This document shows positions 12,686-44,329 of a stretch of 64,000 nt of DNA, in pieces. Made by a program: the position numbers and the translations under genes. The notes under the pieces were generated by a model. That model had not been told where the DNA came from. It worked only from the letters and a program-made list of their open reading frames with translations, and did not search any database. Source of the DNA: a bacterium (GTDB lineage Bacteria > Elusimicrobiota > Elusimicrobia > UBA1565 > UBA9628). The DNA lies in assembly GCA_021782205.1 (NCBI GenBank), contig JAJXVH010000010.1, forward strand, positions 75-64,074, written 5' to 3'. Positions within the stretch are counted from its first letter, which is position 1, and every line of letters starts with the position of its first letter.

Positions 12686-12726
12686 GGGGGAGATTATACC
12701 ACGCCGGAGCACTCCCGCCGACGTGG

Positions 12727-28841: not shown

Positions 28842-31400
28842 ATGCGGCGCTGGTTGCTTGTCGCCTGCCATTTCGTTGGGCCGCTGATCTTCTTCACGAA
28901 CCTGACGCGCAATCCCTACGAAGGTCAGATCGCGCTGGTGCAGGCGGGATTGGCGCTCGGCCTGGCGGTCTGGGCGTGGGACGAAGCACGTCGACCCGGC
29001 GGCTGGCGGCCGCCGCAGCTTCCGGTTTCCCTGCCGCTGGCGCTGTTCGCGGCGCTCTGGGTCTTGAGCCTGGCTCGCTCATGGCTGGTCCACCCCGCGT
29101 TCTTCCGCCCGTCGATCGCGGCGTTGGGACTGCACGCGCTTTTCTTTCAGGGATCCGTCTGTGCCGCGGCGTTCCTGCTGGCGGCCGGGATCGCGGCGCG
29201 CGACGACGGCTCCGTGGACGTGTCGTTGGGCGCGTGGGTGGGCTTCGCACTGGGTTGGGGGTTGTTGTGGACGTTGTATCCGCAGGTTCGGGCCGCCGTC
29301 TACGCTCCGCCCGAGGACTTGTGGGCTTTTTTCTGGGATCCATACGGCGCGCTAGTCTGGTCGCTGGGCCTGGCCGGCGTCCTGCGCCTGACGCGGCGCG
29401 GGCGCGTGACGGATTTTCTTCACCTGGCGTTGTGCGTGGGCTTCTTGGCCTCGGCCTACGGCGTTCTGCAATATTTCAACCTGGATTTCATCTGGCCGTA
29501 CGCGCTGAATCCTTACGGGGGCCGTGCGGTTTCGACGTTCGGCAACCCTAACTTTCTCTCCAGCTACGACGTTGCACTGATGCCCATTGCGCTGGCGCTG
29601 TTCTTGACCGAACGGAAGACGGCTCGACGTGTCGTTTACGCGGGGGTGTTCTTGACGCTGGAGGGCGCTTTGCTGGCCACGCTCACGCGCTCGTCGTGGG
29701 TGGGCGCGGGCGCGGCTTGTTTTGCTCTGGCCGCCTTCGCTCCCCTGCGCGAGCGTCTGCGACGCGACGCGCGCTTCGTCGGGCTTCTTCTGGCGGCCGC
29801 GGCCGCGCTCGCCGTGCTGTGGCCGTCCAGTTCGATCACGACCGGCTACACACCCACGGTGGTGGACCGCCTGACCGAGATCGGTGCTTTTCTCAAGCGC
29901 GACGGTTCCTACAGCCCTCTGCACCAGCGCGTGCTGATCTGGGGCAGCGCGTGGCTGATGGGCCGCGAAGCGCCCCTGCTGGGCAAGGGCGCGGGAGTCT
30001 TCGAGTTGTTCTATCCTTTTTATCAAGGCACGATGCTACACGCCTACCCGTTCTTCCACAACATGCGCACGCACGCCAACAACGCGCACAACGAGATCGT
30101 GGAGAATTTCGCGCAGGTGGGTCTGCTGGGCTTGGGCGCGTTCCTGGCCTTCTGGGCCGCGTTCTTCGAAGCGGCGCGGCGCTGGGGGCGCGGCCGCGCG
30201 GGCGCGGACCCGCTGTGGACGGGCGCGGTGGCCGGCTGCGCGGGCGTGCTGGTCGACAACCTGCTCAACGTTTCCTTGCACTTCACTGTGCCCGCCTTCC
30301 TATTTTGGTGGCTGGCTGGTACCGCCATGGGACGCGGCGAGCGCGAGGGCGCGACCACGCCTGCGCGGATTCTGCCGCAAGGGGCTGGCCGCGCCGCGGC
30401 GGCGGCGCTGACCCTGGCCGCCGCGGCCACGGTCTGGGTTTCGGTCCGGGTTTGGCGGCGCGAGGCCTGGTATTTTGCCGGGTTCAAGCGCTCGAAGGGA
30501 GGCGATCTGGTTCTGGCTCAAAGCGACCTGGAGCGCTCGCGCGCGATCGGCCCGCGGGAAGTCAACGCGCTCTATGAATTGGGCAACGTCTACGCGCGTG
30601 GTTCGCATCCGCACAAGGCCTCGGGCGCCTACCGCGCCGCGCTCTCGGCCAACGCCGGCTACGACGAAATTTACTTCAACCTGGGAACCCTCGACAACAC
30701 GGTGCTTGCCCGCCCCGACGAGGCGCGCGGACTTTATCAGGTCGCCTGGGCCATCAATCCCTTGTCGAGCGGCCTCGATAACGCGCTGAGCGCGATCTAT
30801 CTGCGCGATCCCGCCCGGGACGGCGACGCCGCTGAGCAGGTCCTGCGCCAAGCCACGCGCGATTTTCCGGAGAATCCCGACCACTGGAACAACCTGGGCT
30901 ACGTGCTGGCCGCGCGTCGCGACTGGCCGGGCGCGGAAGCGGCCTACACGCGCGCCTTGGAACTCGCCCCCGACATGCCGACGGCCCTGCGCAATCTGGA
31001 GAGCGAGTCCGCGCAGTCCGGGCGTCCTCCGGCGCCCATCCTGCGGGCGCTGCGCGACCTTCAGACCGTGACCGCCGCCGTCGCGCGCCGCGACTCCTCC
31101 GACGCGACGCTGGCGCGGGCCGCTGCCGTCGTGCGCCTGGCGCCGGACATCTTGAAGGGACGCTTTTTGTATGGCAGCCTTCTGCTGGCTCGCGGCCGGG
31201 CCGCTGCCGCGCTGCCCGAATTGGAATACGTGGTCTCCCGCCTTCCCTCCAAGGCCGCGCCACGCCTGAACCTGGGCGCGGCCTACCGCGCGTTGGGCCG
31301 CGAGGCCGAGGCTCGGACGCAATTTCAGGCGGCGATCTCTGACGAGCCGAACAATCCCCAGGTGCTCGCTCAACTTCGCGCGCTGGGCGCGATCAAATGA
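28842..31400 (+). CDS. O-antigen ligase (Wzy_C)-family polytopic membrane protein fused to C-terminal TPR repeats
   Basis: About 852 aa from ATG 28842 (track start is TTG 28797). Roughly 11 TM segments. The Wzy_C-like core is TRSSWVGAGAA...HAHNEIVENFAQVGLLGLGAF. The C-terminal 330 aa or so carry TPR repeats (ALYELGNVYARG, WNNLGYVLAARRDW, AEAAYTRALELAPD). Confidence 0.8.
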   Translation: MRRWLLVACHFVGPLIFFTNLTRNPYEGQIALVQAGLALGLAVWAWDEARRPGGWRPPQLPVSLPLALFAALWVLSLARSWLVHPAFFRPSIAALGLHALFFQGSVCAAAFLLAAGIAARDDGSVDVSLGAWVGFALGWGLLWTLYPQVRAAVYAPPEDLWAFFWDPYGALVWSLGLAGVLRLTRRGRVTDFLHLALCVGFLASAYGVLQYFNLDFIWPYALNPYGGRAVSTFGNPNFLSSYDVALMPIALALFLTERKTARRVVYAGVFLTLEGALLATLTRSSWVGAGAACFALAAFAPLRERLRRDARFVGLLLAAAAALAVLWPSSSITTGYTPTVVDRLTEIGAFLKRDGSYSPLHQRVLIWGSAWLMGREAPLLGKGAGVFELFYPFYQGTMLHAYPFFHNMRTHANNAHNEIVENFAQVGLLGLGAFLAFWAAFFEAARRWGRGRAGADPLWTGAVAGCAGVLVDNLLNVSLHFTVPAFLFWWLAGTAMGRGEREGATTPARILPQGAGRAAAAALTLAAAATVWVSVRVWRREAWYFAGFKRSKGGDLVLAQSDLERSRAIGPREVNALYELGNVYARGSHPHKASGAYRAALSANAGYDEIYFNLGTLDNTVLARPDEARGLYQVAWAINPLSSGLDNALSAIYLRDPARDGDAAEQVLRQATRDFPENPDHWNNLGYVLAARRDWPGAEAAYTRALELAPDMPTALRNLESESAQSGRPPAPILRALRDLQTVTAAVARRDSSDATLARAAAVVRLAPDILKGRFLYGSLLLARGRAAAALPELEYVVSRLPSKAAPRLNLGAAYRALGREAEARTQFQAAISDEPNNPQVLAQLRALGAIK

Positions 31401-31494
31401 ACACTTGCCATGGCGGCCATATGTCCGCAATAATTCAGCAATCGCTATCGTTTATCCTGCCGTGGAAGGCTCCCGGAGTCGGGGGCCTCATTGT

Positions 31495-33306
31495 ATGCCC
31501 GACCTGAAAATCACTATTATCCTCGCGCTTTGCCTGGCAGGGTCCTCCGTCCGCGCTCAGGACTCAGGCGACGAGCATCCTAGGCTGAGCCGTCAGATGA
31601 AATCCGCCATCCACCTTTATGAAGTCGGCGACGACATGGAGTCCATGAATCGCTTCATGGACATTCTGACGCACGGCGACCCGTCCGAGCGGCCGATGGC
31701 GAATCAGTATCTGAATTTAATTACGAAGCGCATGAGCAGTTCTGGAGGAGCGGGCGGCGCTCCGGCGGCTCCCGCCCCGGCGCCGACGCCCGCGCCCGTC
31801 CAGCCCCCGGTGGCCGTGGAATCCTCGGAGCCCGCGCCTCCGCCGGCTCCAGCCCCGAAGCCGGTGGAGGAAAATGTTCCGGTGGTCAAGCCGCCATCCT
31901 CTTCGGCGGAGCCGATGAGCGCGGCCAATAAGGTGTTGATGCGTCAGGAGATTCAGGCGCGCCTTCGCGCCGCGCAGGAGAAGAGCGTGGCGGATCTGCG
32001 CGAGCTCGACGGCGTGCGCGTGATCATGCGGGCCAACGGCAAGCCGGCCGCCATCGGCATACCGTCGCCGCTATTGTTCCGTTCCGGGATTTCCTTTCAA
32101 CGCGACGCGGGGCGCATCCTGGACCCGCTGACGAAGCTGGTTTTCGCGCTGGGCGAAACCCAGGTCGTGATTCTGCCCGAAGGCACGGCCATCGGCGACG
32201 CGAAGGTTTTGGACATGCGCCGCACGATGGGCATCTCGGCGCATCTCTACGAAGAGGGCGTGGCGCCTCCGCGCGTGCGCGTGAACCTGCTGAACACTCA
32301 GGTCGATCTGCCCCGCGGCCTGCTGGACTTCAAAGGCGTGGTGATCACTTTCGTGTATGACCAACCAATGAACCTAGAGGCCGAAAGCGAGGTGGGCGAC
32401 GAACTTGGCCCGCCCATCTCCTTGGGCGTTTTCCCGCCGCAACTGCGGCCCTCGCGCAATCAGGGCGCGATCATCGAGTTCTCGGTCTCCGATCCGCCAT
32501 CGGGCCTGACCTCGTGGAAATTCCAGCTCCTTCAGCCCGCCGCCGGGGGGGAGGAATTGGCGCCGCTGCAGGAGGTCATCGGAGGAGGCCCCGTGTTCCA
32601 TCAAATCTTTTGGAACGCGCGGCAGAACTATTTTGGCGCGCCGTTGGCACCGGGGCGCTACGAGTGCGTGCTGACCGCCACGGACACGAAGAACCGTCAG
32701 CGCGCCCTGCATCGCTGGATCACCGTCTTGGGCGAAAGCGAACCGGAGGAAAATCTGCTGGCGACGCCCGCCGAAAAGGTCCAGGCTGCGACGGTCGTGA
32801 GCGCGTCTGTCGCCGCTCCGGCCGCTCCGGGGGATGCTCTCCCCGGCGGCGACGCTCCCGCCCCTTTGGTCAAAGGCGTGAAGGCCGACGCGGAGATCGC
32901 GCCGAAGCCCGCTCATGTTCAGAAACCGACGCGGCGCGTGGCGAAACGAGCGGGGCGAAAGAAGAAGGTTCACGCGAAGGCCCAGCCCGATTCGAGCGAC
33001 GCCGCAGCCGCCAAGCCCGGGCGCTACAAGCTTAAATTCGATCCGACCACTCATGAATTGACGGCCGCGGCTGAACGCGCGTTGGCCAAGGCGGCGGGAG
33101 CGTTCGCGCCCGGGGGAACGTTGAAGGTCATCGGGCACGCCGGCCCCGATGAGGCCGATGCCGCCGCTCTGGCCGATCGGCGCGCGAAGCTGGTCGTCGG
33201 CCTGCTGATCAACCGATATCAGATCGACCCGAAGAGCATCGAGATGTCGACGTCCGACGCGTCCGACGTGGCGATGGTCGAGGTGATCGTGGGCGGCAAG
33301 GACTAG
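31495..33306 (+). CDS. secreted OmpA/MotB-like domain protein with Pro/Ala-rich linkers (first gene of the pilus cluster)
   Basis: Start moved to MPDLKITIILALCLAGSSVRAQ (signal peptide). The central region (PSPLLFRSGISFQRDAGRILDPLTKLV...VILPEGTA) and C-terminus (VIGHAGPDEADAAALADRRAKLVVGLL) look like degenerate OmpA_C peptidoglycan-binding modules, judged by eye. Confidence 0.55.
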   Translation: MPDLKITIILALCLAGSSVRAQDSGDEHPRLSRQMKSAIHLYEVGDDMESMNRFMDILTHGDPSERPMANQYLNLITKRMSSSGGAGGAPAAPAPAPTPAPVQPPVAVESSEPAPPPAPAPKPVEENVPVVKPPSSSAEPMSAANKVLMRQEIQARLRAAQEKSVADLRELDGVRVIMRANGKPAAIGIPSPLLFRSGISFQRDAGRILDPLTKLVFALGETQVVILPEGTAIGDAKVLDMRRTMGISAHLYEEGVAPPRVRVNLLNTQVDLPRGLLDFKGVVITFVYDQPMNLEAESEVGDELGPPISLGVFPPQLRPSRNQGAIIEFSVSDPPSGLTSWKFQLLQPAAGGEELAPLQEVIGGGPVFHQIFWNARQNYFGAPLAPGRYECVLTATDTKNRQRALHRWITVLGESEPEENLLATPAEKVQAATVVSASVAAPAAPGDALPGGDAPAPLVKGVKADAEIAPKPAHVQKPTRRVAKRAGRKKKVHAKAQPDSSDAAAAKPGRYKLKFDPTTHELTAAAERALAKAAGAFAPGGTLKVIGHAGPDEADAAALADRRAKLVVGLLINRYQIDPKSIEMSTSDASDVAMVEVIVGGKD

Positions 33307-33307
33307 G

Positions 33308-34933
33308 ATGCCGGACCTAGACGACATCGTCGAGCAGCTCGCCTTCGGCAAAGAGAAGCGCAAGCCCGGTCCGAGCTTGGGTCTTTACCTGAGTCCGGAC
33401 ACGATCTATCTTGCGGAGTCGCACGTCGACCGAGCCGGGAAATTCGTCGTGGACCACCTGGTGCGCATCCCGATCCCGGCCGCGGTCAAGGGTGCTGGTG
33501 CGACGGCGACGATGAACACAGATTTCCTGGCCGATCCGCAGAAGATCGCCGGTCTGATTCAGCAGTCGATGGCGCAAACGCGCTGGAACTCCAAGAACGT
33601 CCGGGTCACCCTTTCTCATCACCTGGGCATGCTGCGGTATTTCACGATGCCGACTCTGGAGAAACGCTTCCTCCAGACCGCAGTGCCCTTGGAATCTAAA
33701 AAATACATCCCCATTCCGTTCGACGTTCTGGTCCACGACTTTCAAACGATGCCCCTGCCGCCTGACTCCGCGGGAAAGAGCCGCGTCGGCGTGCTGATCG
33801 CGGTCACACAGAACAAGAATGTGCCGAACATCATCGGCCTGCTCAACAGCCTGGGCCTGAAGCTCGATGGCTTGGAGGTCGCGCCCTGTTCCGTTCTTCG
33901 TTTGTGGCAGGCCGTGAATCCCTCGAAGGAAGTCGGGGCCTTCGCGCACGTTCACATGGACGGTGGCAACGTGCGCGTGATGGTCAGTGAGCACGGCGTG
34001 CCGATTTTCTTCCGCGAGGTCTTCCTGGGCTCTGATCCGACGCTCAACGATTTGCGTAAGATCGACCTGGCCGGCTGTCTGTCCTATATCCAAAAGCAGT
34101 TGGGCATCGCGAGCGTTTCTCGTGTCCGCGTCAGCGGCAATGTCGCCAACGTCGAGGAGCTTCGCGCGGCTTTTTCCGCTGAGGCGGGCGTCGAGGCGGA
34201 AATTCAGGACACCCCGGCATTGCTCTCGATCAAGAGCGGCGAGTGGGGCGGCTACGCGGCCTTGGGAGCTTCGGCGCACGCGCTGGTTTCCACGCCTTTG
34301 AAGCTGGACCTCGGCGCGCTGGACCGCGTCAGCGACGATGAGCGCCGCGTTTCGCGTGATATCCTGCTAACGGGCACGGCTTTTGCGGCTGTCTTGGCGG
34401 CCGCGGGCGCCTTCAAATCCGCGACTTACGCCTACCGGGCGCAGGAGCTCGCCAAATATCCTCTCGACGCGAATGTGAAAGCCGCGATCGGCACGATGCC
34501 GCCTGCTCAGATCGATACTTTGCTTGTCGAAATGCAGAAGCAGGCGACGGATCTTCAGGTCATCGTTCCGACCAATCGTCCGAAAATGACCGCCTTGCTC
34601 GCGGAAATCATTCAGCGGATGCCCGATAAAATTTGGCTGACACGAATCTCCATCTTCAGCCCCCTGGTGGAGGCAGAGCATTCCAAGTTCAAGATGGTTC
34701 TTGAGGGGCGCGCGCAGAGCGACTCTGTTTCAAGCGAACAGGCCGCGGCTTTCAAGTTTAAGGACGACCTGCTGCGTTCGCCTATGATCGGGCGTTATTT
34801 CAATATTCAAATCTCCCTGGAGAAGGGCGAGGGCACCAACGTGTCCCCGTCGTCGGGCATGGACCCGGAGCTCCTGCGCCAGAAGCTCGAGGATCGCACC
34901 AAATTCACTTTGGAAGTGAACTCAAAACACTGA
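33308..34933 (+). CDS. pilM: type IV pilus assembly protein, PilM-PilN fusion
   Basis: 541 aa. The N-terminal 340 aa or so are an actin-like PilM fold (LGLYLSPDTIYLAE, GLEVAPCSVLRLW, HMDGGNVRVMV). Then comes a TM helix (ILLTGTAFAAVLAAAGAF) and a PilN-like periplasmic domain (IWLTRISIF...KMVLEGRA). Confidence 0.8.
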   Translation: MPDLDDIVEQLAFGKEKRKPGPSLGLYLSPDTIYLAESHVDRAGKFVVDHLVRIPIPAAVKGAGATATMNTDFLADPQKIAGLIQQSMAQTRWNSKNVRVTLSHHLGMLRYFTMPTLEKRFLQTAVPLESKKYIPIPFDVLVHDFQTMPLPPDSAGKSRVGVLIAVTQNKNVPNIIGLLNSLGLKLDGLEVAPCSVLRLWQAVNPSKEVGAFAHVHMDGGNVRVMVSEHGVPIFFREVFLGSDPTLNDLRKIDLAGCLSYIQKQLGIASVSRVRVSGNVANVEELRAAFSAEAGVEAEIQDTPALLSIKSGEWGGYAALGASAHALVSTPLKLDLGALDRVSDDERRVSRDILLTGTAFAAVLAAAGAFKSATYAYRAQELAKYPLDANVKAAIGTMPPAQIDTLLVEMQKQATDLQVIVPTNRPKMTALLAEIIQRMPDKIWLTRISIFSPLVEAEHSKFKMVLEGRAQSDSVSSEQAAAFKFKDDLLRSPMIGRYFNIQISLEKGEGTNVSPSSGMDPELLRQKLEDRTKFTLEVNSKH

Positions 34934-35532
34934 TGGCAGAGCCTATCGACCTGAAGAAATTTTCCGATCTCGCGGTCAAAGAGATTGAGCTCGTTTTTGG
35001 CACTCTCCGGGACAAAGGCGCCAAGCGATTCGGCCGGACTTTTGCCCTGGCGGGCATCATGATCGCCGCGTCCTACATGCTCGTTTATCGGCCGCCGCAA
35101 AATAAGAGCGAAAAGCTGGAGGCGCAGATCGCTCACGCAAAACAGATCTTCGACTACGGCGAAAAATATAAGGCCTTGCGCGAGCAAACCGTTGCCGCGT
35201 ATTCGCGTCTTCCCTCCCCGACCGACCGCCCCCAGTGGTTGGCGAACTCGACGCGCGCGCTTTTGGAGGCCGGAAATCTGCAGAGCGACAATTTCGGGCC
35301 GTCGGACGAGACCGAGCACAACGGCCTGGTCTTTCAGTCCGCGATGATCTCCTTCGACGCGCATTTCTCGGACGTGTACGGCGTTCTGCTTCGCGCGGAG
35401 AACGCCCGTCCGCTGATGCACATCCAGCGCATCGACATGGCGAAGCTTCCACGAAGCGATCCGGACGATGCCGGAATCGCCCATATCGACTGCGACATCT
35501 CGACCGTGATTCCGATCAAGAGATTCCAATGA
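34933..35532 (+). CDS. pilO: PilO-like pilus assembly protein
   Basis: 199 aa with one N-terminal TM helix (FALAGIMIAASYMLVY), a coiled coil and an alpha/beta domain. The position after pilMN and a 1-nt TGATG overlap support the call. Confidence 0.6.
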   Translation: MAEPIDLKKFSDLAVKEIELVFGTLRDKGAKRFGRTFALAGIMIAASYMLVYRPPQNKSEKLEAQIAHAKQIFDYGEKYKALREQTVAAYSRLPSPTDRPQWLANSTRALLEAGNLQSDNFGPSDETEHNGLVFQSAMISFDAHFSDVYGVLLRAENARPLMHIQRIDMAKLPRSDPDDAGIAHIDCDISTVIPIKRFQ

Positions 35533-36272
35533 GCGAGAGCGAGGGACGCCGTCGCGGTGGGGCCGGCTGGCTGATTTTGGTCGCGGCGCTTGCCGTTCCC
35601 GGGTTCCTTTTTTATAACTGGTCGCGCAGCATGAAAGCGGAACACGAGCGGGCTTTGTCCGGCAAGGCGATGAGCCGGGCGGCAGAGGGCGCGTTGTTTG
35701 CAACGCCTCCCTCAGGAGGGCGCCTCGTTAATCCGATCGCGCCCGGCGCATCGGCGACAAATGTGCGCGCGTCGACCTCGACTCCCATGGCGACGACCGC
35801 GGCGGCGCGTCCGGCGGCATTGCCTTCAAAGAAAGTCCTTCCTTTGTCGGCGCCTTCCGTCCAGCCGAACGGGCCCGGCACTGCCGTCGCGGCGCCCGTG
35901 GTGTTGTCCAGCGCCGCGGTGACGCTGTCGCGCGACCCGTTCGTGTCGCCGCTGGACATCGTTCGTCAGCGCGAGGCCGCGGCGGAGCGCGAGCGTCAGC
36001 GACTGGCGGCGCTGGCGGCTTCGCGGCCCGTGATTCACCACCATGCTCGTCCCGTTGAGCGCAAGGTCGAGCAGGACGTCGAACTTCAGGGCGTGATCAC
36101 GACGCCGGACGGCAGCGCCCGGGCCATCATAAACAACGAGACTTTGGCCAAAGGCGAGACCTTCCGCGCCCCGGGGCACGAAGGCCGGGTGACCGTCGAG
36201 GAGATTACGTCCGACACGGTCTGGTTTGTCTACAAGAAGCGACGCTTTAAAAAAGTCATCAGCAACGAGTAG
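35529..36272 (+). CDS. pilP: PilP-like pilus assembly protein
   Basis: Start moved to MSESEGRRRGG (ATG 35529, overlaps the pilO stop). Has a TM anchor, a long Ala/Pro linker and a C-terminal beta domain (LQGVITTPDGSARAIINNETLAKGETF...VTVEEITSDTVWF) as in PilP/GspC HR domains. Confidence 0.55.
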   Translation: MSESEGRRRGGAGWLILVAALAVPGFLFYNWSRSMKAEHERALSGKAMSRAAEGALFATPPSGGRLVNPIAPGASATNVRASTSTPMATTAAARPAALPSKKVLPLSAPSVQPNGPGTAVAAPVVLSSAAVTLSRDPFVSPLDIVRQREAAAERERQRLAALAASRPVIHHHARPVERKVEQDVELQGVITTPDGSARAIINNETLAKGETFRAPGHEGRVTVEEITSDTVWFVYKKRRFKKVISNE

Positions 36273-36286
36273 TGCCTGGAGGCATC

Positions 36287-38104
36287 ATGAGGCTCGTCAC
36301 GCAGTCGCGACGCACGTCAATCCCGCGTTCCGCGGCGGCCCTGGCCGTCGGCGCGAGTCTTGCGTTTGGCGACGTTCCCGCCTATGCGCAGCGCCGCCAG
36401 GCCGAACCGGACGCCAATCCCGCGTTCCAGGGCCAGACCTCCGGGGCCCCCAGCGATGCGGGCGCGCCGGTCGCCGAACCGGGAATGGTGGCGCCGGCGG
36501 CGGCCTCTCCGGCCCCGGTCGGGTCCGATACCGCCTTGGGCGAGCCGCGCAGCGTGCAAAGCGTTCAGATCGGAGCCGCGCCCGCGCCAGTGGAAGCCGT
36601 GCCAGTGGAGACGACTCCGCTGGAGACGCGCGTGACCGTGCGCGTCAAGGGCGTGCCTCTGGCGACGTTCCTGGACACGATCTCGGCTCAAGCCAAGATC
36701 AACTTCATCATCACCGAAGGCCTGGAAGAGAAGCGCGTCACGGCCTTTCTCCAAAACGTGACGGTGCGCGATGCGCTGCAGGTTCTGCTCGAAATCAAAG
36801 GACTGACGTATCAGCGCATCGGTAAGACCAACACCTATGTCGTGACCCAGCGCTCAAAGCAGGCCGAGAATCTGGTGACGCGCATCTACGCGCTCTCCTA
36901 CATACCGCTCATCGACCTGACCGCCAAGGATGTGACGTCTGTCGCCTCGAGCGCGTCCGGAGGCTCCCCGACCGGGGGTGCGCCCACACCTTCGCCCACG
37001 GCTGCGAGCGGCGGGACCGGTGGGACCGGCGGCGCCGGGGGGCCGGGAGGAGGAAACAATAAACCATGCTCTCCCAAAAACCGGACCATCGACATCGCGC
37101 GCATCCTCTGTTCGGTGCTTTCTAAATCCGGCGATATCGAGATCGAGCCGCGCACGAATTCGATCATCGTCACGGATATCCCCGAGAGCTTCCCGCAGGT
37201 GGAGCAGATCCTCTCCGAACTGGATAAGAAGGCCCCGCAGGTGCTCATCGAGACGCAGATCGTGGAAATCGATTCGACGCGCACGCGCAACCTCGGTTTC
37301 GAGTGGGGCGGTCAGAACGGCGAGTTGGCGACCTTCACCGGAGGCAAACGCGACACGACATTCCCTTTGAATATTTCTGGGACTCCGTCGAACACGCACT
37401 TTTTCGATCCGTTGCTGCTGCCGGGCGGCGTGATTAGCACGATCGGCATGCTCTCCGGAGGTGCCAGCGGCGCCGCGGCGCTGGGCACGACCGGCGCTGG
37501 CGGCGGCGCCGCGACCCAGAATACCCAACTGTTCGGTTCTTACCTGCAGACCAGCGTCCTGGACCTTACCTCGCTGGCGGTGACCCTGCGCGCTCTCGTG
37601 GAGAGCTCCGAGGCACGCTTCTTGGGCAAGCCCAAAGTCCTGACGCTGAACAACAAGACCGCGACGATCGAGATTCAGCAGGACCAGGCCGTCGCGATCG
37701 AAAGCACCTTGGCGGGAGGCTTCGGGGTCACTCAATCCGTTCAGCAGGCCGAACGCTACAACACCGGAGTCAAGCTGAGGGTCACGCCTCAGGTCAACAA
37801 GGACGGCTATATCACCATGTTGCTGGAGCCGACGTTCGCCAACGTCGAGCAGTCGGTGGTTTCGACGGCGGCCAACCCCGTCTACGACCCGCTGACGCGC
37901 GCCAGCGTCACTCTTGTGCGCGTCAAGAACGGGCAGACCGTGGTCATCGGCGGTCTGCTGGAGTCCAACGAGACGAAGGATGTGCGAAAGGTTCCTTTTC
38001 TCGGCTACATCCCGCTGATCGGCTGGCTGTTCACGAGCAATCTCTACACGCGCACCAACACCGATCTGGTCATCTTCATCACGCCGACCATCGTCAGCGA
38101 CTAA
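36287..38104 (+). CDS. pilQ: type IV pilus / type II secretion secretin
   Basis: ATG 36287 with GGAGG 5 nt upstream. STN-like N-terminal domain (VTVRVKGVPLATFLDTISAQAKINFII), N-domains and the secretin C-domain (VVIGGLLESNETKDVRKVPFLGYIPLIGWLF...LVIFITPTIV). Confidence 0.9.
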   Translation: MRLVTQSRRTSIPRSAAALAVGASLAFGDVPAYAQRRQAEPDANPAFQGQTSGAPSDAGAPVAEPGMVAPAAASPAPVGSDTALGEPRSVQSVQIGAAPAPVEAVPVETTPLETRVTVRVKGVPLATFLDTISAQAKINFIITEGLEEKRVTAFLQNVTVRDALQVLLEIKGLTYQRIGKTNTYVVTQRSKQAENLVTRIYALSYIPLIDLTAKDVTSVASSASGGSPTGGAPTPSPTAASGGTGGTGGAGGPGGGNNKPCSPKNRTIDIARILCSVLSKSGDIEIEPRTNSIIVTDIPESFPQVEQILSELDKKAPQVLIETQIVEIDSTRTRNLGFEWGGQNGELATFTGGKRDTTFPLNISGTPSNTHFFDPLLLPGGVISTIGMLSGGASGAAALGTTGAGGGAATQNTQLFGSYLQTSVLDLTSLAVTLRALVESSEARFLGKPKVLTLNNKTATIEIQQDQAVAIESTLAGGFGVTQSVQQAERYNTGVKLRVTPQVNKDGYITMLLEPTFANVEQSVVSTAANPVYDPLTRASVTLVRVKNGQTVVIGGLLESNETKDVRKVPFLGYIPLIGWLFTSNLYTRTNTDLVIFITPTIVSD

Positions 38105-38131
38105 ATCCGTCCGACTTGCGCGGTCCGGGGC

Positions 38132-38159
38132 TTGACAAGCGACGGGGTCCGGCTATACT
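38132..38159 (+). promoter_or_regulatory. candidate internal promoter upstream of pilB (TTGACA-16-TATACT)
   Basis: cTTGACAagcgacggggtccggcTATACT, 29 nt upstream of ATG 38189. Shares the extended motif CTTGACAAG..GACG..GGG with the pilC promoter. Confidence 0.45.
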
Positions 38160-38188
38160 TCGGTTACAGCGAGAGGAATGTATCCACT

Positions 38189-39919
38189 ATGGCCGAAACA
38201 CTTGCCGATATTTTGGTGACGAGCGGGGTTCTGACCCTCGAGCAGAAGGACAAGGCGCTCAAGGTCGCGACGCAGACGAAGTGCCAGTTTTCCGAAGCGG
38301 CCGTGAAGCTTGGGTTTACCAAGGAAGAAGACATCGCGATCGCCCTGTCCAAGCAGTATGGCGTTCCCTACGCCTCGCGCGACAACAAGATACTGAAAGC
38401 CGAGAAGGGCCAGAACCTGGAGAAGATTCTGCCCGAGGCCTACGCGCGGCAGAATTTCATCCTCCCGCTCTTCCAGGACAACAACGTGCTCGCGGTCGCC
38501 ATGTCGGAACCCGAGAACATGCTGCTGCTCGACAACGTTAAAATGCTGACGGGCCTGGAGGTTCAGGCTTTCATTTCGACGAAGACTCAGATCATCAAGG
38601 CGATCGATGAATTCTACCTGGGCGGCAGCGCCATCGACCGTACGCTGGACAGCAAGAACGCCTCGGATGAGGTCGAAGAGGCGGTGCAGACGGGCGACGA
38701 GCGCCTCAACCTCGACCAGGCCTCGGCCGACGCGCAGGGAGCGCAGGTCGTTTCCCTGGTCAACGCGATCCTCAAGCAGTCCATCCAAGAGCGCGCTTCG
38801 GATATCCACATTGAAAAATACGACGACCGCATCAACATCCGCTTCCGCATCGACGGCGTGCTCTATGAGCGCACGCCGCCGCCCAAGCAGATGTTCAACG
38901 GCATCGTCTCGCGCCTGAAGATCTTGTCCAAGCTGGACATTGCCGAGCGGCGGCTTCCGCAAGACGGCCAGTTCTCGATCAAGGTTCAAAACCGCGTCAT
39001 TGACCTGCGCGTCTCGATTTGTCCCTGCGTGTTCGGCGAGAAGGTCGTTATGCGCCTTCTCGACAAGGGCGCCGTGGAGCTCGACATCAACAAGGTCGGT
39101 TTGGACCCGCGGCAGCGCGACGACATCATCGAGGCGGCCAACCGGCCACACGGCCTGTTCTTCATGACCGGCCCGACCGGTTCGGGCAAGACCACGACGT
39201 TGGGCGCGATTCTGAACACGATCAAGAACCCCGAGATTAACATCATGACCATCGAGGACCCGGTCGAGCTCAAGATCGAGGGCATCAACCAGGTCCAAGT
39301 GCGCGCGGCCATCGGACTGACGTTTGCCTCGGCGCTACGCTCCTTCTTGCGTCAGGACCCGGACGTGATCTTGGTTGGAGAGGTTCGCGACCAGGAGACC
39401 GCGCAGACCTGCCTGCGCGCGGCACTCACGGGCCACCTGGTGATCTCGACTCTGCACACCAACGACGCTCTGTCGTGCGTCGTGCGTTTGATCGACATGG
39501 GCATCGAACCGTTCATGCTCGCCAACTCCCTGCAGCTGGCCGCGGCCCAGCGCTTGGTGCGCCTGCTCTGCCCGCACTGCAAGAAGCCGGCGAAGGTTCC
39601 GCTGGAAATGGCGCAAACGGTGGTGAAGGAAGCCCTGATCGAACAGGCGCCGGACCCCGCTTCGGTCGTCTTCTACGAGGCGCGCGGCTGCGACCGCTGC
39701 TCCCGCACCGGCTACGCCGGCCGCAAGGCGATTTACGAGGTGTATAAGCTCAACGGCGCGATGCGCGAGATCATCTACCGCTACGGCGGAGACATCGGCC
39801 GTCTGCGCGCCGCGGCCGAAGAGGCGGGCATGTGGACCATGCGTGCCAGCGGTTTTCGCAAGGTTATCAACGGTCTGACGACCATCGAGGAAGTGATGTC
39901 CGTCACCGTCGCGGAGTGA
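38189..39919 (+). CDS. pilB: type IV pilus assembly / type II secretion ATPase (GspE/PilB family)
   Basis: Start moved to MAETLADILV. Has an N-terminal T2SSE_N/MshEN-like domain, Walker A GPTGSGKTTT, Asp/His boxes and the tetracysteine motif CPHCK...CDRC. Confidence 0.9.
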   Translation: MAETLADILVTSGVLTLEQKDKALKVATQTKCQFSEAAVKLGFTKEEDIAIALSKQYGVPYASRDNKILKAEKGQNLEKILPEAYARQNFILPLFQDNNVLAVAMSEPENMLLLDNVKMLTGLEVQAFISTKTQIIKAIDEFYLGGSAIDRTLDSKNASDEVEEAVQTGDERLNLDQASADAQGAQVVSLVNAILKQSIQERASDIHIEKYDDRINIRFRIDGVLYERTPPPKQMFNGIVSRLKILSKLDIAERRLPQDGQFSIKVQNRVIDLRVSICPCVFGEKVVMRLLDKGAVELDINKVGLDPRQRDDIIEAANRPHGLFFMTGPTGSGKTTTLGAILNTIKNPEINIMTIEDPVELKIEGINQVQVRAAIGLTFASALRSFLRQDPDVILVGEVRDQETAQTCLRAALTGHLVISTLHTNDALSCVVRLIDMGIEPFMLANSLQLAAAQRLVRLLCPHCKKPAKVPLEMAQTVVKEALIEQAPDPASVVFYEARGCDRCSRTGYAGRKAIYEVYKLNGAMREIIYRYGGDIGRLRAAAEEAGMWTMRASGFRKVINGLTTIEEVMSVTVAE

Positions 39920-39968
39920 TGCCCCCGGCGACGTCTGGGAGAGCACAGAAATCGCACAGGTGGTTGCC

Positions 39969-39997
39969 TTGACAAGGACGTAGGGGCGTATTACACT
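39969..39997 (+). promoter_or_regulatory. candidate internal promoter upstream of pilC (TTGACA-17-TACACT)
   Basis: cTTGACAaggacgtaggggcgtatTACACT, 18 nt upstream of ATG 40016. Confidence 0.45.
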
Positions 39998-40015
39998 GCC
40001 TCTACACCCCGATTT

Positions 40016-41230
40016 ATGGCGCGATACTCTTATACCGTCCAAGACAGCCGAGGCGAAACCAGCTCCGGAGCCATTGAGGCTACCGACGAGAACGAGGCCA
40101 TATCGGCCCTGCAGTCGAAGGGCTACTTCATTCTTTCGATCAGCGCCGACAAGGCCGCCGGCAGCAGTTCCTCCAAGGGCGGCGGGTCCGTCGCCATTCA
40201 GGATCTCGTTTTCTTCTCCGAACAGTTGGCGACGCTGCTCAACGGCGGCGTTCCTCTGGTCCGCGCTCTGTCCTTGCTGGGGGAGAACTCGGGTTCGAAG
40301 GGCCTCCAGTTCGCGTTGGCGCAGGTCACCAAGGACGTGGCCAGCGGCACGGCGCTCTACAAAGCTTTGGAAAAGCATCCCAAAATATTCGACACCCTTT
40401 GGGTCTCGCTGGTCCAAGCCGGTGAAATGGGAGGCCAACTGCCGAAGGTTCTCAAGCAGATCGGCGCCTACCTGGCTTCGCAAGCAGAATTGCAGGGCAA
40501 GATCATCACGGCGCTGGCCTATCCCGGCGTGCTGATGACGGTTTCGCTCGGCGTGCTGCTGTTTTTTATCGTCAAGATCGTTCCGGTCTTCGCGGACATT
40601 TTCGCGGGCTTCAACATCAAACTGCCGCCCCTGACCCAAGCCATCATTTTCGTCTCGCACCTGATCGTCCACCACTTGGCGGGCCTGATCACCAGCATGG
40701 TGGGCTCGTATTTTGCGTGGTCCGCGTATACCTCGACGGAGCCGGGGCAGGAAGCGAAGTGGAACATGATCATGGGTTTTCCATTTTTCGGCGATTTCGT
40801 TAAAAATATCCTCATTGAGCGGCTGCTGACCACTTTGTCGACTTTGATCGAGTCCGGCGTGAGCATTCTGAGCGCCATCACCGTGCTGGAGGGGGTCTTC
40901 GCCAAAAACATCATCTTCCGGCGCGTTTTGGGCGCGGTCAAGAACGACGTCGCCAGCGGCAAATCAATTTCACAGTCGTTTAAGAAGACCGGCGTCCTTC
41001 CCAATCTGGTCACGGAGATGATCTTCATGGGCGAGGAGTCCGGTAAGCTTCCGGATATGCTCGTGACCCTTTCGTCTTTTTACAAGGAGCAGATTGACCA
41101 GTTCACGCGGCGCTTCAACTCGATCATCGAACCGCTGATGGTGGTGGCGGTCGGCGCGATCGTCGGCGTCATCGTCCTGGCGGTGTTCCTGCCGATCTTC
41201 AAGCTTTCGACCATGGGAGGCGGACATTGA
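40016..41230 (+). CDS. pilC: type IV pilus / T2SS platform protein (GspF/PilC family)
   Basis: 404 aa with two T2SSF repeats (FSEQLATLLNGGVPLVRAL; ERLLTTLSTLIESGVSILSAI) and three TM blocks. Confidence 0.9.
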   Translation: MARYSYTVQDSRGETSSGAIEATDENEAISALQSKGYFILSISADKAAGSSSSKGGGSVAIQDLVFFSEQLATLLNGGVPLVRALSLLGENSGSKGLQFALAQVTKDVASGTALYKALEKHPKIFDTLWVSLVQAGEMGGQLPKVLKQIGAYLASQAELQGKIITALAYPGVLMTVSLGVLLFFIVKIVPVFADIFAGFNIKLPPLTQAIIFVSHLIVHHLAGLITSMVGSYFAWSAYTSTEPGQEAKWNMIMGFPFFGDFVKNILIERLLTTLSTLIESGVSILSAITVLEGVFAKNIIFRRVLGAVKNDVASGKSISQSFKKTGVLPNLVTEMIFMGEESGKLPDMLVTLSSFYKEQIDQFTRRFNSIIEPLMVVAVGAIVGVIVLAVFLPIFKLSTMGGGH

Positions 41231-41766
41231 TGAGACGCGCGCGATCTGGCGGCTACACGCTGATGGAGCTTATCACCACGGTTCTTCTCGTGGGGATATT
41301 GGCGGCGTTCGCGGTGCCTCAATATTTGAAGACCGTGGAGACGAATAAATTCGACGACGCCGTGGGTCTGACCAACCAGATCGGCATGACCAACCGGATG
41401 TTCGCGCTCGATCATGCCGGCGTTTATACCCAGGGCGCCTTCGGCGGCACAAGTTGCAACTGCAACAGTGGCACTTGCTCAAGCTATAATCCGATCCTGG
41501 CGCCGTTTACTAAACCATGCGCGCTCGTGTGCTGCAACTATCTCGGCGACCAGAACTGGAGCCAGAAGCCGTACACGTTCTACGCCTGCGATCCGGGCAG
41601 CGGCGGCGGCGGCGGCCCCTGCTCGTCGACCTACGTTTCCGGCGCGTCGCGTACGAATGGCGCGAGTCCGGGCACCACTTTTTCGCCCTACACGGCTTGG
41701 AGCGTTTATATGAATTCGTCGGGGGGTATCTATTCGCTTGGCGGCGCGCCGACTCCGACCTATTGA
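41227..41766 (+). CDS. prepilin-type N-terminal cleavage/methylation domain pilin (candidate major pilin), Cys-rich
   Basis: Leader MMRRARSGG | YTLMELITTVLLVGILAAFAVP with Gly-1 and Glu+5. Globular part carries 8 Cys (SCNCNSGTC, PCALVCC, YAC, GPC). ATGA overlap with pilC. Confidence 0.8.
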   Translation: MMRRARSGGYTLMELITTVLLVGILAAFAVPQYLKTVETNKFDDAVGLTNQIGMTNRMFALDHAGVYTQGAFGGTSCNCNSGTCSSYNPILAPFTKPCALVCCNYLGDQNWSQKPYTFYACDPGSGGGGGPCSSTYVSGASRTNGASPGTTFSPYTAWSVYMNSSGGIYSLGGAPTPTY

Positions 41767-42337
41767 TGCCCGTCACCTCGGCGGCTACACGCTCATCGAG
41801 GTGGTGGTGGCTTTGCTGGTGTCGGCGATTATCGCGACGGCGGTCATGAGCGTCGCGCTCACCGCGAAGATGAACGGGGGACAAAACGGTAAAACCGACC
41901 GGCACGAGATCGCGGGGGAGGCCGTGAAGAACATCTCCTCGGCGTTGCGCAACTTCGCCAGCGGCTGCTGCGACGTGCAAAAGGGATGCAATCCGAACGG
42001 TTACGGCGCCGGGAACTTGTGGACGTGCTACCCGATTTCGGGTCCGAATGTGAACGATCCCTCCTACCACGGCTGGACGTTCAACAACTATCCCTTGGCG
42101 ACCGGGCCTGTGGGCGACTCCGGTTTTGCCGGCCGCTACGCGCTGCTCAACGGAACACATATCTTGACGAACGTTCTTCCGTCTTGGTTCACCGCGGCGC
42201 CATACAACGCTCAGGTGAGCTACACGGTGAATGCGGCTGCAGGTGTCCCGTACACACTGCCCGCCGCTTTCCCCGCCACCCCGGTCATGCCGCCGGTCTA
42301 TGTCAGCGTCACCTGGACGGAACCGGTATCCCCATGA
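41738..42337 (+). CDS. prepilin-type minor (pseudo)pilin
   Basis: ...ARHLGG | YTLIEVVVALLVSAIIATAV with Glu+5. TTG 41738 is the only in-frame start. 4 Cys (SGCCDVQKGC...WTC). Confidence 0.7.
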   Translation: MAARRLRPIDARHLGGYTLIEVVVALLVSAIIATAVMSVALTAKMNGGQNGKTDRHEIAGEAVKNISSALRNFASGCCDVQKGCNPNGYGAGNLWTCYPISGPNVNDPSYHGWTFNNYPLATGPVGDSGFAGRYALLNGTHILTNVLPSWFTAAPYNAQVSYTVNAAAGVPYTLPAAFPATPVMPPVYVSVTWTEPVSP

Positions 42338-43104
42338 AAAATCAACGGCGTGGCTTTTCGTTGCTTGAGTTAGTGCTTGCGCTTTCTTTCGCGGCGATCG
42401 TTCTTTATGGGATCACCAGCGTGTTCACTTCATTGACGAAATTCGAATTCGAGGCCGTGCGCAAAAACTCGGTCGACGGCTGGTCCCAGGCGTCGCTTTC
42501 ATCCATGACCAAGGAGATCGAGGACGCCACGATAATCTACTTCCCGAGCGCGGCGTTCGCCGGCCTCTCTGGGGTGTCCGCGACGAACGGGATACTCGGT
42601 TGCACGAACTGGTCGACGATGCTCAACAACGGCCTCAACAACGCCACCTCTGGTGGGCCGCTCGATCCAAGCTTGCCGGTGGTTCAGTTCTACTACTGCT
42701 ATGACGCCACGTCCGGACCCACTCCAGCGCCGAGCATAAATCCAGTCGCCTACCTAAGACGCATCGCGGCCTCCGGGGCGGCCGTGACCTGTCCGGCGGT
42801 GGGGGCCGTGAACCCCGGAACCTATCCTTGCCACGGAGGTTCCGTTCTGCCGCGCCAAACTTCGAACGATGTGATCGCCACGAACGTCAACCTCACTCCC
42901 GGCAACACGGATATGTTTTTTTACTACAAGAGCGGCCCGGCCGAAGGCGTCAGCTTGAACTTTCTCGTTGGCAATCCTACGCCGGGCCCGCCCGGTGGTT
43001 CGCAATCCGGCGTGCCTTCCGCGGCGAACATAACGAATCCCCAAACGCTCTTGGTCCAGACGTCGATCGCCTTGAACAGGCCGTACATGAACTCGAACGA
43101 CTGA
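42334..43104 (+). CDS. prepilin-type minor (pseudo)pilin
   Basis: Start moved to MKNQRRG | FSLLELVLALSFAAIVLYG (ATG 42334, ATGA overlap). Confidence 0.65.
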   Translation: MKNQRRGFSLLELVLALSFAAIVLYGITSVFTSLTKFEFEAVRKNSVDGWSQASLSSMTKEIEDATIIYFPSAAFAGLSGVSATNGILGCTNWSTMLNNGLNNATSGGPLDPSLPVVQFYYCYDATSGPTPAPSINPVAYLRRIAASGAAVTCPAVGAVNPGTYPCHGGSVLPRQTSNDVIATNVNLTPGNTDMFFYYKSGPAEGVSLNFLVGNPTPGPPGGSQSGVPSAANITNPQTLLVQTSIALNRPYMNSND

Positions 43105-43529
43105 TGAACAAGCGCGGCAGCATCCTTCTTCAGGTGCTTGTGACCGGGGTCATCCTGGCGATGATCTCCGCTGCCATTCTGCGCCTCACCCTGGGATCTT
43201 CTTTCCTGACGGCTCGAGTCAACGGCGAGATGGTCCAAAAGCGCGCCGATGAGGGTGGTCTGGCGCGGCTGTCCGCGTATTGGAATGCGAACGGCTTGTG
43301 CACGAGCAACGTGACCATCGGTTATTCGTGTTCCGGAACATCCGGCTCTTGCAACTGTGTCTGCACCCCGACCAACATGTCCGATCCGTCCGTGAATGTG
43401 ACTTGGCTCGGGCCACCGGCGGCGCCGGTGGGTCCGCCGTTCACCGCTCCGGGCCAATGCCAAGTGACCGTGACTGCGGTCGACACGGTCGGCCTGGCTG
43501 CGTCGGACCAGGCTGCCTCCACTTATTGA
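43104..43529 (+). CDS. PilX/GspK-like pseudopilin lacking Glu+5, Cys-rich
   Basis: Start moved to MNKRG | SILLQVLVTGVILAMISAAIL (ATG 43104). 6 Cys, including SCSGTSGSCNCVC. Confidence 0.5.
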   Translation: MNKRGSILLQVLVTGVILAMISAAILRLTLGSSFLTARVNGEMVQKRADEGGLARLSAYWNANGLCTSNVTIGYSCSGTSGSCNCVCTPTNMSDPSVNVTWLGPPAAPVGPPFTAPGQCQVTVTAVDTVGLAASDQAASTY

Positions 43530-43531
43530 CC

Positions 43532-44329
43532 GTGCGCCGACTCTACGTCACCGCCGACGATTTCGGCGATTCTGCGGAGGTCAATGAGGCGGTGGTGCGC
43601 GCCTACCGCGAGGGCGTGCTGCGCTTTGCGAGCCTCATGGTTCTACGCCCCGCCGCTCGCGCCGCGGCCGCGCTCGCCCGAGAGAACCCGGGATTAGGCG
43701 TAGGCCTGCATTTGGAGTTGTGCGCCGACGCGCCCGAAAAGGCGGGCCTTCGTTATTTTTTCGACGCGCGCGCACGCGCCGGGGTGGAGGCTGAGATCCG
43801 TGCGCAGATCGAGGCCCTGCGCGCGCTGGGTGTCACGCCCACTCATATCGACGGCCACATCAACGTCCACGTCCATCCGGTCATTTTCCCGGCGGTGTGC
43901 CGCGTGGCGCGCGAGTACGGCATACCGCGCGTGCGACTGCCGTCCGGAGAATTTGCGGCAAGCCTGTCCGCTGCGCCCGATGATCCGGTCATCCCGCGCC
44001 TGGCGCTGGCGGGCACGTTCGCGGCGATGGGCGTTTGGGTGCGTGGGGCGGCGCGCGGCCTGGAGGTTCCGACCACGTGGGGGCTTCTGCGTTCGGGACG
44101 CATGAGCGAGGACTACGTGGTCGGTCTGCTCTCGCGCCTGCCGCAGGGTCCGACGGAAATCTACTTCCATCCGCACCAAGATCCCGCCACGGCCGCCCAC
44201 GGCACGCCGACGGCCACGCACCAGTCCTACAGCGAGCTTCAGACCTTGCTCAGCCCGCGAGTGCGCCGTGCGCTGGAGGAGTCCGGCGCTGAGCTGGCGA
44301 GCGTGGGCGACGCGTCAGACGCGCGCTGA
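43532..44329 (+). CDS. hpnK: hopanoid biosynthesis-associated YdjC-like deacetylase
   Basis: GTG 43532 gives (M)RRLYVTADDFGDSAEVNEAVVRAYREGVL...THIDGHINVHVHP, the YdjC fold signature. Sits next to hpnL-I-J. Confidence 0.8.
   Translation: MRRLYVTADDFGDSAEVNEAVVRAYREGVLRFASLMVLRPAARAAAALARENPGLGVGLHLELCADAPEKAGLRYFFDARARAGVEAEIRAQIEALRALGVTPTHIDGHINVHVHPVIFPAVCRVAREYGIPRVRLPSGEFAASLSAAPDDPVIPRLALAGTFAAMGVWVRGAARGLEVPTTWGLLRSGRMSEDYVVGLLSRLPQGPTEIYFHPHQDPATAAHGTPTATHQSYSELQTLLSPRVRRALEESGAELASVGDASDAR

Follow-up and report, generated by a model that had tools for sequence, protein, structure and literature searches.

The window analysed here (the whole 64-kb stretch of contig JAJXVH010000010.1, assembly GCA_021782205.1, a metagenome-assembled genome of the Elusimicrobiota) carries, at positions 31495-43529 of its + strand, a block of 11 closely packed genes of a single orientation (G1-G11; Table 1), whose parts list, homologies, folds, conservation and promoter footprints are established in this work. 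The cluster is a real, complete-looking and unusual form of a well-known type of machine, and not a new type. On balance, it is probably a vertically inherited type IV filament machine of the Elusimicrobiota, of type IVa-pilus (T4aP) grade and with the backbone gene order of the MSHA locus, and of two possible products, a surface fibre and a secretion piston in the periplasm, we favour the fibre. Adjacent genes are separated by 1 nt at G1/G2, 14 nt at G4/G5, 84 nt at G5/G6 and 96 nt at G6/G7, and overlap by 1 nt at G2/G3, 4 nt at G3/G4, 1 nt at G7/G8, 29 nt at G8/G9, 4 nt at G9/G10 and 1 nt at G10/G11. A preliminary description, made from the letters of this DNA, had outlined the same co-directional block, and all 11 genes are confirmed on the + strand, as is its end 2 nt before hpnK (stop of G11 at 43529, possible GTG start of hpnK at 43532). 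Family matches bear out the OmpA-like protein, the PilM-PilN fusion, the secretin, the one ATPase and the one platform protein that it had named, and the leaders of four prepilins bear out its one candidate major pilin and three pseudopilins.

Family assignments were made by Pfam and NCBIfam scans, in part on whole orthologue families, and all window proteins were compared by tblastn to 84 related loci fetched for this work (given L numbers here). Of the parts of a type IV filament (TFF) machine of diderms, the block has a PilB/GspE ATPase, a PilC/GspF platform, class III pilins and a secretin. Within this superfamily, the ATPase, the PilM fold, the domain layout of the secretin and the size of the pilin lean towards T4aP. 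The ATPase G6 (Pfam T2SSE 6.6e-133, 443 bits; MshEN 7.6e-17), whose translation shows Walker A and B, Asp and His boxes and a CxxC...CxxC zinc (tetracysteine) motif, ranks PilB over GspE among the NCBIfam models (598.6 bits, cut-off 675.65, against 561.2, cut-off 630.25). Aligned end to end with sequences of solved structures (PDB), it is closest to the PilB proteins of Myxococcus xanthus (484 bits) and Geobacter (473 bits), and its catalytic core alone again scores best with PilB (412/397, against 381 for EpsE and 337 for Thermus PilF). This placement rests on a ranking of bit scores against solved structures, which is a weak substitute for phylogeny; the tblastn matches of G6 on plasmids were nearly all GspE or unclassified ATPases of <46% identity, too poor for a meaningful PilB/GspE tree.

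The second line of evidence is G2, in which a cytoplasmic actin-like PilM domain is followed by one transmembrane (TM) helix, a coiled coil and a periplasmic ferredoxin-like domain. Pfam finds PilM_2 at its N-terminus (E 1.2e-9) and a weak PilN further along (E 0.027), and by sequence its PDB match is Thermus PilM (5.6e-8). The AlphaFold2 model, built on an 18-sequence alignment (mean pLDDT 70.7), has the actin-like domain at ~1-330, a long TM and coiled-coil helix at 343-419 and a ferredoxin-like alpha/beta domain at 427-539. When this model is compared with the PDB by Foldseek, PilM comes on top (Pseudomonas aeruginosa 7e-20, Thermus 1e-17, M. xanthus 3e-17), and FtsA (1e-11) and the cytoplasmic domain of EpsL/GspL (2e-8) stand at lower ranks. 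Because PilM ranks so well above both, G2 is best taken as a true PilM-PilN fusion by descent. By sequence, proteins of this length are not rare, as at E < 1e-10 the profile of the PilM-N family reaches 469 representative clusters, of which many are 500-560 aa long and are matched over most of their length.

The secretin G5 is made of a signal peptide, an N0/STN domain, a low-complexity Gly/Ser/Pro insert, one Secretin_N and the secretin core (Pfam Secretin 2.2e-41, 141.7 bits, plus Secretin_N and STN). Pfam detects in it neither an S-domain nor a second or third Secretin_N (i.e., the N1-N3 of GspD), and this layout of N0 and a single N-domain speaks for a pilus secretin. As for the pilins, G8-G10 carry the class III signal peptide motif with Glu5, kept in 12-18 relatives. 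G8 matches N_methyl, TIGR02532 and the N-termini of PilA/GspG and is kept in 18 relatives; its family members, of 150-197 aa with 6-10 Cys (a size in keeping with a T4aP major pilin), share the cysteine pattern C.LV.C.YL.DQ.W. G9 (N_methyl 1.6e-5; weak GspI match; leader kept in 12 relatives) has in TTG 41738 the sole start that preserves its leader, as found by a start-codon scan. The public call of this gene (L001 13619-14149) begins at the equivalent of 41807 and yields 176 aa, so that G9 is probably mis-started in databases and, because the public start removes the class III signal peptide, is hidden from pilin searches. G10 matches N_methyl and the prepilin-peptidase-dependent protein PRK10557 (E 2.2e-5) and is kept in 14 relatives. 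G11 has no Glu5 and no family match in the Pfam and NCBIfam scans, and in 13 relatives its leader RG↓S(I/V)L(L/I)(Q/H)V and six Cys are conserved. GspK and PilX likewise are without Glu5, and G11 would be a tip subunit of their type.

Table 1. Features of the pilin-type block and its immediate neighbours (positions in the 64-kb window)
Feature	Positions	Strand	Description
tRNA-Thr(CGU)	28281..28352	+	Rfam tRNA 73.8 bits; ARAGORN
Wzy_C-TPR gene	28797..31400	+	Wzy_C (O-antigen-ligase-like) polytopic membrane protein, C-terminal TPR domain
Promoter-like site, G1	31405..31434	+	TTGCCA-18-AATAAT; motif TAATAATTCAGCAATCG conserved upstream of G1 in relatives
G1	31495..33306	+	secreted scaffold protein, 603 aa, OmpA-like peptidoglycan-binding domain at C-terminus
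G2	33308..34933	+	PilM-PilN fusion, 541 aa
G3	34933..35532	+	bitopic PilO/GspM-family protein, 199 aa, one TM helix
G4	35529..36272	+	bitopic protein, 247 aa, GspB/GspC-type HR domain at C-terminus
G5	36287..38104	+	secretin
Promoter-like site, G6	38132..38159	+	sigma-70 type, TTGACA-16-TATACT, 11/12
G6	38189..39919	+	PilB/GspE-class assembly ATPase, N-terminal MshEN region
Promoter-like site, G7	39969..39997	+	sigma-70 type, TTGACA-17-TACACT; would drive G7-G11 and hpnK
G7	40016..41230	+	PilC/GspF inner-membrane platform protein
G8	41230..41766	+	candidate major pilin; leader ...SGG↓YTLMEL, Glu5, 8 Cys
G9	41738..42337	+	minor pilin; leader ...HLGG↓YTLIEV, Glu5; TTG start
G10	42334..43104	+	minor pilin, 256 aa; leader ...QRRG↓FSLLEL, Glu5
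G11	43104..43529	+	small minor pilin-like protein, 141 aa; leader ...KRG↓SILLQV
hpnK-like gene	43532..44329	+	YdjC deacetylase (YdjC 8.3e-54); last gene of co-directional run

The cluster is not peculiar to this genome. A near-identical contig from a metagenome-assembled genome (DAHZIH010000102.1, GCA_027401735.1), compared over 21.7 kb (window ~28.2-49.9 kb), has cluster proteins 99-100% identical to these, and metagenome contigs in ENA match the window over overlapping stretches. The order Wzy_C-TPR gene, G1-G4, secretin, ATPase, platform, pilins is found in ~30 contigs with enough flank, among which PilM-N identity falls from 82% to ~25% (L050, L051, L053, L055). In one sub-lineage (L043-L045) the order is rearranged to Wzy_C-TPR gene, ATPase, platform, several small pilin-like open reading frames (ORFs), G1-G4, secretin and a G8-like pilin. 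One pilin of this rearranged sub-lineage (L043 7109-7576) matches ComP_DUS, the minor pilin that is the receptor of DNA uptake sequences (E 1e-7), a match from which DNA binding might be suspected for some versions of the system. In the closed 3.8-Mb Elusimicrobiota genome CP096137.1 (L008 12241-17824), G4 and the secretin, ATPase and platform genes are each in two ORFs; this may come from frameshift errors in a long-read assembly, or else the cluster is decaying in that lineage.

Footprints of promoters are also found in the intergenic gaps. On the + strand, a consensus scan of 18 kb yielded three promoter-like sites and no more, and each falls exactly in one of three such gaps. Hexamers and spacing of the G6 site are identical in L007, L009-L012, L019 and L022, with one mismatch in L024, L046 and L049, and the G7 site is conserved in L007, L009, L011, L012, L019, L022 and L024. 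That the hexamers are kept while spacer and flanks diverge among relatives is in favour of the filament-machine reading. Transcription thus appears to start from three sigma-70-type promoter-like sites, upstream of G1, G6 and G7, and the transcription units would be three: G1-G5, G6, and G7-G11 with hpnK. Inside the block an Rfam search gave neither a riboswitch nor another RNA element, and in or after it no convincing intrinsic terminator was found (20 found against 16 expected).

The assignment to a T4aP grade is not without difficulties. Every NCBIfam equivalog score of the core proteins is below its cut-off (the PilM model, for example, gives G2 61.6 bits against 133), and by its sequence the cluster falls outside both curated definitions, that of T4aP and that of the T2SS (type II secretion system), which upholds the earlier view of a single-locus type IV filament machine that is canonical of neither kind. 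Since the scores are sub-threshold and mixed, the class to be expected from TXSScan/MacSyFinder would be ‘generic’ or T4aP. The secretin is without the AMIN domains common in PilQ and its GspD and PilQ scores are equal (NCBIfam GspD 217.1 bits, cut-off 351.35; PilQ 211.2, cut-off 284.35), just as its best solved structures divide between the GspD-family secretin 6hcg (type II secretion system protein D; 117 bits) and PilQ of M. xanthus (111 bits). The platform G7 (Pfam T2SSF 4.2e-56, 188.7 bits, two repeats), which aligns to M. xanthus PilC in the PDB with 222 bits, scores higher with GspF (324.5, cut-off 424) than with the PilC models (295 for the Thermus type, cut-off 700, and 261). The minor pilins number just three. 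Neither the window nor, in any relative, the 10 kb on either side of the block yielded a retraction ATPase (PilT/PilU), and all isolates of the phylum are reported to be non-motile (PMC11257099).

The alignment proteins add to these difficulties, for the fused G2 has the one-chain topology of GspL (and also of MshI). The window protein G3 reaches only the GspM model NF040576 (E 3e-4); in its family (n=32) PilO is matched by 19 members, T2SSM by 16 and T2SSM_b by 14 (best E 7.5e-8), and the family profile has no match among PDB sequences. The name PilO given to it in the preliminary description is therefore right in that this family is matched and too narrow in that the GspM models are matched as often. 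G4, which stands at the place of PilP in the gene order, was called PilP as well, and this has to be abandoned: its N-terminal TM helix is joined by a Pro/Ala-rich linker to a C-terminal HR domain, and its family matches T2SSB in 15/17 members (best E 1.1e-5), T2SSC in one and PilP in none. The sole, marginal match of its family profile in the PDB is the GspC HR domain 2lnv (E 0.12), and its N-terminal region has no Cys, hence no lipobox, so that it is not a lipoprotein. The contrast of ‘PilMNOP rather than GspCLM’ drawn for this subcomplex is not supported either, as G2 has the topology of GspL, G3 matches GspM and G4 matches GspB/GspC.

Much of this would be explained if the block were instead a T2SS, with G8 forming a short endopilus in the periplasm to drive folded exoproteins out by way of the secretin, G2 acting as GspL, G3 as GspM, G4 as GspB/GspC and G9-G11 as GspI/J/K, an interpretation that we regard as unlikely and yet worth serious weight. 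The platform score, the GspB/GspC type of G4, the GspM and T2SSM_b matches of G3, the fused topology of G2 and the lack of a PilT nearby in any relative all lean in its direction, as do the reported non-motility of the phylum and the last minor pilin without Glu5. Like gspD-K, the genes form an operon-like single locus in the order secretin, ATPase, platform, major pilin, minor pilins, and G1, as a peptidoglycan-binding accessory protein, recalls the GspA/GspB pair (ExeA/ExeB, OutB). Other features speak against it. The GspD, GspE and GspF scores are all under their equivalog cut-offs and the ATPase is nearer PilB; the cytoplasmic domain of G2 has the PilM fold and not the reduced fold of GspL; Pfam finds no PDZ family in G4 and, as said, no extra Secretin_N or S-domain in the secretin; and G1 would bind peptidoglycan by OmpA-like domains, not in the ExeA manner. 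The pilins show only N-terminal matches to GspG, GspH and GspI, are four as opposed to the five pseudopilins GspG-H-I-J-K, and have among them neither a GspH-like protein nor a full-size GspK, the Glu5-less subunit being only 141 aa. G8 is also larger and more Cys-rich than GspG. The preliminary description had left fibre versus secretion undecided, and on this we agree that sequence alone does not decide the function.

With T4aP of M. xanthus and Geobacter the machine shares the order pilM-N-O-P-Q and the best solved-structure matches of ATPase, platform and PilM; unlike them it has PilM and PilN fused, a TM-anchored HR-domain protein in place of the PilP lipoprotein, a secretin without AMIN, no PilT nearby and no separate Tgl/PilF pilotin. 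The all-in-one layout, which the preliminary description implied to be unprecedented for pili, is found in the MSHA locus of Vibrio cholerae, with the order mshI-J-K-L-M-N-E-G-F, then mshB-A-C-D-O-P-Q, and PilT elsewhere (PMC4624765). There, mshI is GspL/PilN-like, mshJ PilO-like, mshK a small protein, mshL the secretin and mshN a TPR protein (PMC4624765). Both are one contiguous locus, in which M(N)-O-‘P’-Q-B-C-pilins corresponds to mshI-J-K-L-(M-N)-E-G-pilins (PMC4624765); because this backbone order is the same, a single-locus pilus system of such layout is already known, which strengthens the case for a pilus. In both, a TPR protein is linked to the locus, the N-terminus of the ATPase is of MshEN type and no retraction ATPase is encoded within. 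Unlike MSHA, the block scores only 137.3 bits with MshL (cut-off 250.2), has no ExeA-like MshM ATPase and no MshF, counts four pilins rather than seven, has its TPR domain fused to a Wzy_C membrane domain and a scaffold of OmpA type (G1), and its ATPase scores 25.6 for the c-di-GMP-binding motif, below the cut-off of 38. Another long PilM-like protein with a secretin in a non-proteobacterial diderm, also with weak NCBIfam matches here, is that of Akkermansia (Amuc_1098-Amuc_1102); membership in these families was rejected, with 30 bits against 650 for Amuc_1101 and 86 against 750 for Amuc_1098.

The Elusimicrobiota, widespread in groundwater, soils and guts and hardly represented in culture, lack flagella, and the only appendages encoded in their genomes are of pilin type (PMC11257099). 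No published description of this cluster was found in literature searches, and the supplements of Denise et al. 2019 have no Elusimicrobia entries as text. The locus provides a well-defined, phylum-wide parts list for the one secretin-containing filament machine of the phylum, including parts that are outside current models (i.e., the fused PilM-PilN, the membrane-anchored GspB-type HR protein and the OmpA-type scaffold G1), and programs for automated classification are likely to call it ‘generic’. Standing between curated T4aP, MSHA and T2SS, it is a data point on how secretion systems diverged from pili. By itself the cluster does not change the understanding of these machines; its relevance is to the evolution and classification of filament systems and to the cell biology of an uncultured phylum.

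One of these parts outside current models is G1, whose signal peptide can be read in the sequence. Its OmpA domain is sub-threshold in the window protein and is matched in 27/27 family members (Pfam, best E 4.7e-13). The AlphaFold2 model (pLDDT 71.7) has a confident three-helix N-domain (33-82), an OmpA/MotB-like domain (~143-287), an immunoglobulin-like sandwich (308-411) and, at 510-600, a second OmpA-like domain that is preceded by a disordered basic linker. Foldseek matches it to the peptidoglycan-binding domains of OprF, Acinetobacter baumannii OmpA, PAL and MotB and to the C-terminal domain of PorE.

For such a fibre machine we infer the following protein contacts and tip complex. The prepilins G8-G11 would be cleaved by a prepilin peptidase encoded elsewhere, and a tip complex of G9, G10 and G11 would prime assembly. 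The hexameric PilB-like G6 would dock on the cytoplasmic PilM domain of G2 and, acting through the PilC-like platform G7, drive polymerisation of the major pilin G8. In the periplasm, the PilN-like half of G2 would pair with the PilO/GspM-like G3, and the HR domain of the membrane-anchored G4 would touch the N0 domain of the secretin, whilst the OmpA-like domains of G1 would tie the trans-envelope assembly to peptidoglycan, a task that falls to ExeA/GspA, FimV or TsaP in other systems. Pfam calls on public contigs and a Pfam scan of the first 8.4 kb reveal no prepilin peptidase (PilD/GspO) in the 64-kb window, and these together with a tblastn self-search reveal no second T2SSE ATPase, as the preliminary description had noted for the peptidase and PilT. 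In known systems the peptidase can be encoded away from the locus, and pilT is frequently unlinked to the rest of the pilus genes.

A further candidate part is the Wzy_C-TPR gene, separated from G1 by a 94-nt gap. It scores 56.8 bits with Wzy_C (cut-off 31.7) and matches many TPR families, with weak TPR matches to PilW and Tgl. Some two dozen relatives with enough flank (25 loci) have it directly 5′ of G1, as far out as 25% PilM-N identity; L048 and the rearranged L043/L045 are the ones that do not. It is probably an accessory factor, which would transfer glycans to the pilin or envelope and/or have a TPR scaffold or pilotin-like role. The conserved C-terminal tail of G8, GGAPTPTY, is Pro/Thr-rich in most high-GC relatives, as GGAP(T/N/A)P(T/A)Y, and with a Wzy_C-family gene adjacent it might, purely as a hypothesis, be a site of O-glycosylation. 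A more ambitious interpretation, of which we are rather doubtful, is that of a distinct and ancient filament lineage of the Elusimicrobiota between T4aP, MSH and T2SS, where the Wzy_C-TPR protein O-glycosylates the Pro/Thr tail of G8 or is a membrane-embedded pilotin, the OmpA-like protein is the peptidoglycan anchor, and hpnK is co-transcribed with the pilin operon in hopanoid producers. If true, the co-transcription of hpnK would link fibre assembly to remodelling of outer-membrane lipids.

The hopanoid genes themselves are neighbours on uneven terms. The preliminary description saw the block as wedged between two halves of a hopanoid gene set, and hpnK, hpnL, hpnI and hpnJ do abut it on one side (HpnI and HpnJ, on the - strand downstream of the block, pass their equivalog cut-offs; HpnK with 211.3 bits, cut-off 232.6, and HpnL with 131, cut-off 195.65, are just sub-threshold). 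On the other side, however, HpnA, HpnH and Shc, confirmed by NCBIfam at 8507-12712, are removed from it by 19 kb of unrelated genes, including a phosphatase, a permease, an ABC transporter, MerR, a photolyase and UvdE. The association with hpnK, which it had proposed to follow in relatives, is found in some and missing in others: hpnK abuts or overlaps G11 in L007, L009-L012, L019 and L049, is missing from the block's side in L022, L024 and L037, in which the next genes are hpnL and hpnI, and in L050, L051 and L053 all hpn genes are absent while the Wzy_C-TPR gene and the block are retained. Because L050, without hpn genes, has the same 11 genes joined directly to the Peptidase_MA gene that follows hpnJ in the window, the variable module is hpnKLIJ and not the pilus block, whose steady companion is the Wzy_C-TPR gene. 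Block genes give no match to hpn models in NCBIfam, where only the neighbours do. In L043 (15416-16429) and L048 (12059-13066) an HpnL-like gene (LPG_synthase_TM, flippase-like) lies on the - strand, convergent with the pilin end, and hpnI and hpnK are not adjacent; the hopanoid assignment of the HpnL-like gene of the window is not secure either, its score being below the cut-off.

A functional coupling of the block to these hopanoid and glycan genes, by which hpnK/L/I/J and the Wzy_C-TPR protein place a glycan on the pilins or hopanoid-modified membranes are needed by the machine, would explain hpnK within the same operon, and the adjacency of hpnK and G11 does persist where G11 identity is 36-46% (72% in the close relative L007). 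The HpnL-like gene that stays beside the block without hpnI/J/K, the Pro/Thr-rich tail of G8 and the fact that the pilin O-oligosaccharyltransferases PilO/TfpO and PglL are Wzy_C enzymes could be read in the same way. We nevertheless hold this coupling to be improbable: with HpnI and HpnJ passing their cut-offs and shc, hpnH and hpnA in the window, the simplest reading is ordinary biosynthesis of hopanoid side chains, hpnK is lacking from the block's side in several relatives and hpn genes from others, and the flanks being syntenic on both sides, the adjacency can be inherited gene order. Thus hpnK is a neighbour of the machine, not demonstrated to be part of it, and the hopanoid adjacency is probably a matter of neighbourhood, that is, of conserved gene order.

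This neighbourhood extends well beyond the block. The tRNA-Thr(CGU) precedes the Wzy_C-TPR gene in 18/21 related loci, including the distant L050, L051 and L055; it is co-oriented with that gene in loci of 36-68% GC and in several of them lies within 30-150 nt of its start, and the two may share one promoter. Further upstream a Liv-type ABC transporter, and downstream the Peptidase_MA and UvrA genes, are syntenic. The A/T richness that the preliminary description saw in the block is real, with a GC of 0.618 against 0.668 in the rest of the window, but it is no hint of foreign origin: across relatives the GC of the block tracks that of the host contig (0.36, 0.44, 0.51, 0.58-0.68), with a deficit of <=4 points in high-GC genomes, and the flanks are syntenic across the phylum. 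Since the block follows its host in this way, the deficit in the window is a systematic compositional feature and not a sign of recent transfer; and since the same block, flanks and tRNA-Thr are found down to 25% PilM-N identity, the block is vertically inherited in an old and stable chromosomal neighbourhood of the Elusimicrobiota. A recently acquired island inserted at the tRNA gene and hence of lower G+C, to which the tRNA-Thr at the upstream boundary and the status of the block as the lowest-GC 12-kb stretch of the window might point, was rejected as highly improbable on this evidence, on the lack of an integrase nearby in Pfam calls on public contigs, and on the named close homologues (those of G1, G2 and the Wzy_C-TPR gene), which are all from Elusimicrobia/Elusimicrobiota.

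Two other parts of the window deserve mention. At 3932-7179 on the - strand, just upstream of hpnA/hpnH/shc, there are genes for DXP synthase and a polyprenyl synthetase, and their position implies that the supply of isoprenoid precursors is clustered with hopanoid synthesis. At 17379-17449 on the + strand, a strong match to the 2'-dG-II aptamer of purine riboswitches (RF03165; 78 bits, gathering score 60) is found upstream of two genes without a Pfam family (302 and 478 aa), which are followed by an operon for a periplasmic binding protein and ABC transporter; this operon may be a nucleoside/purine uptake system under riboswitch control.

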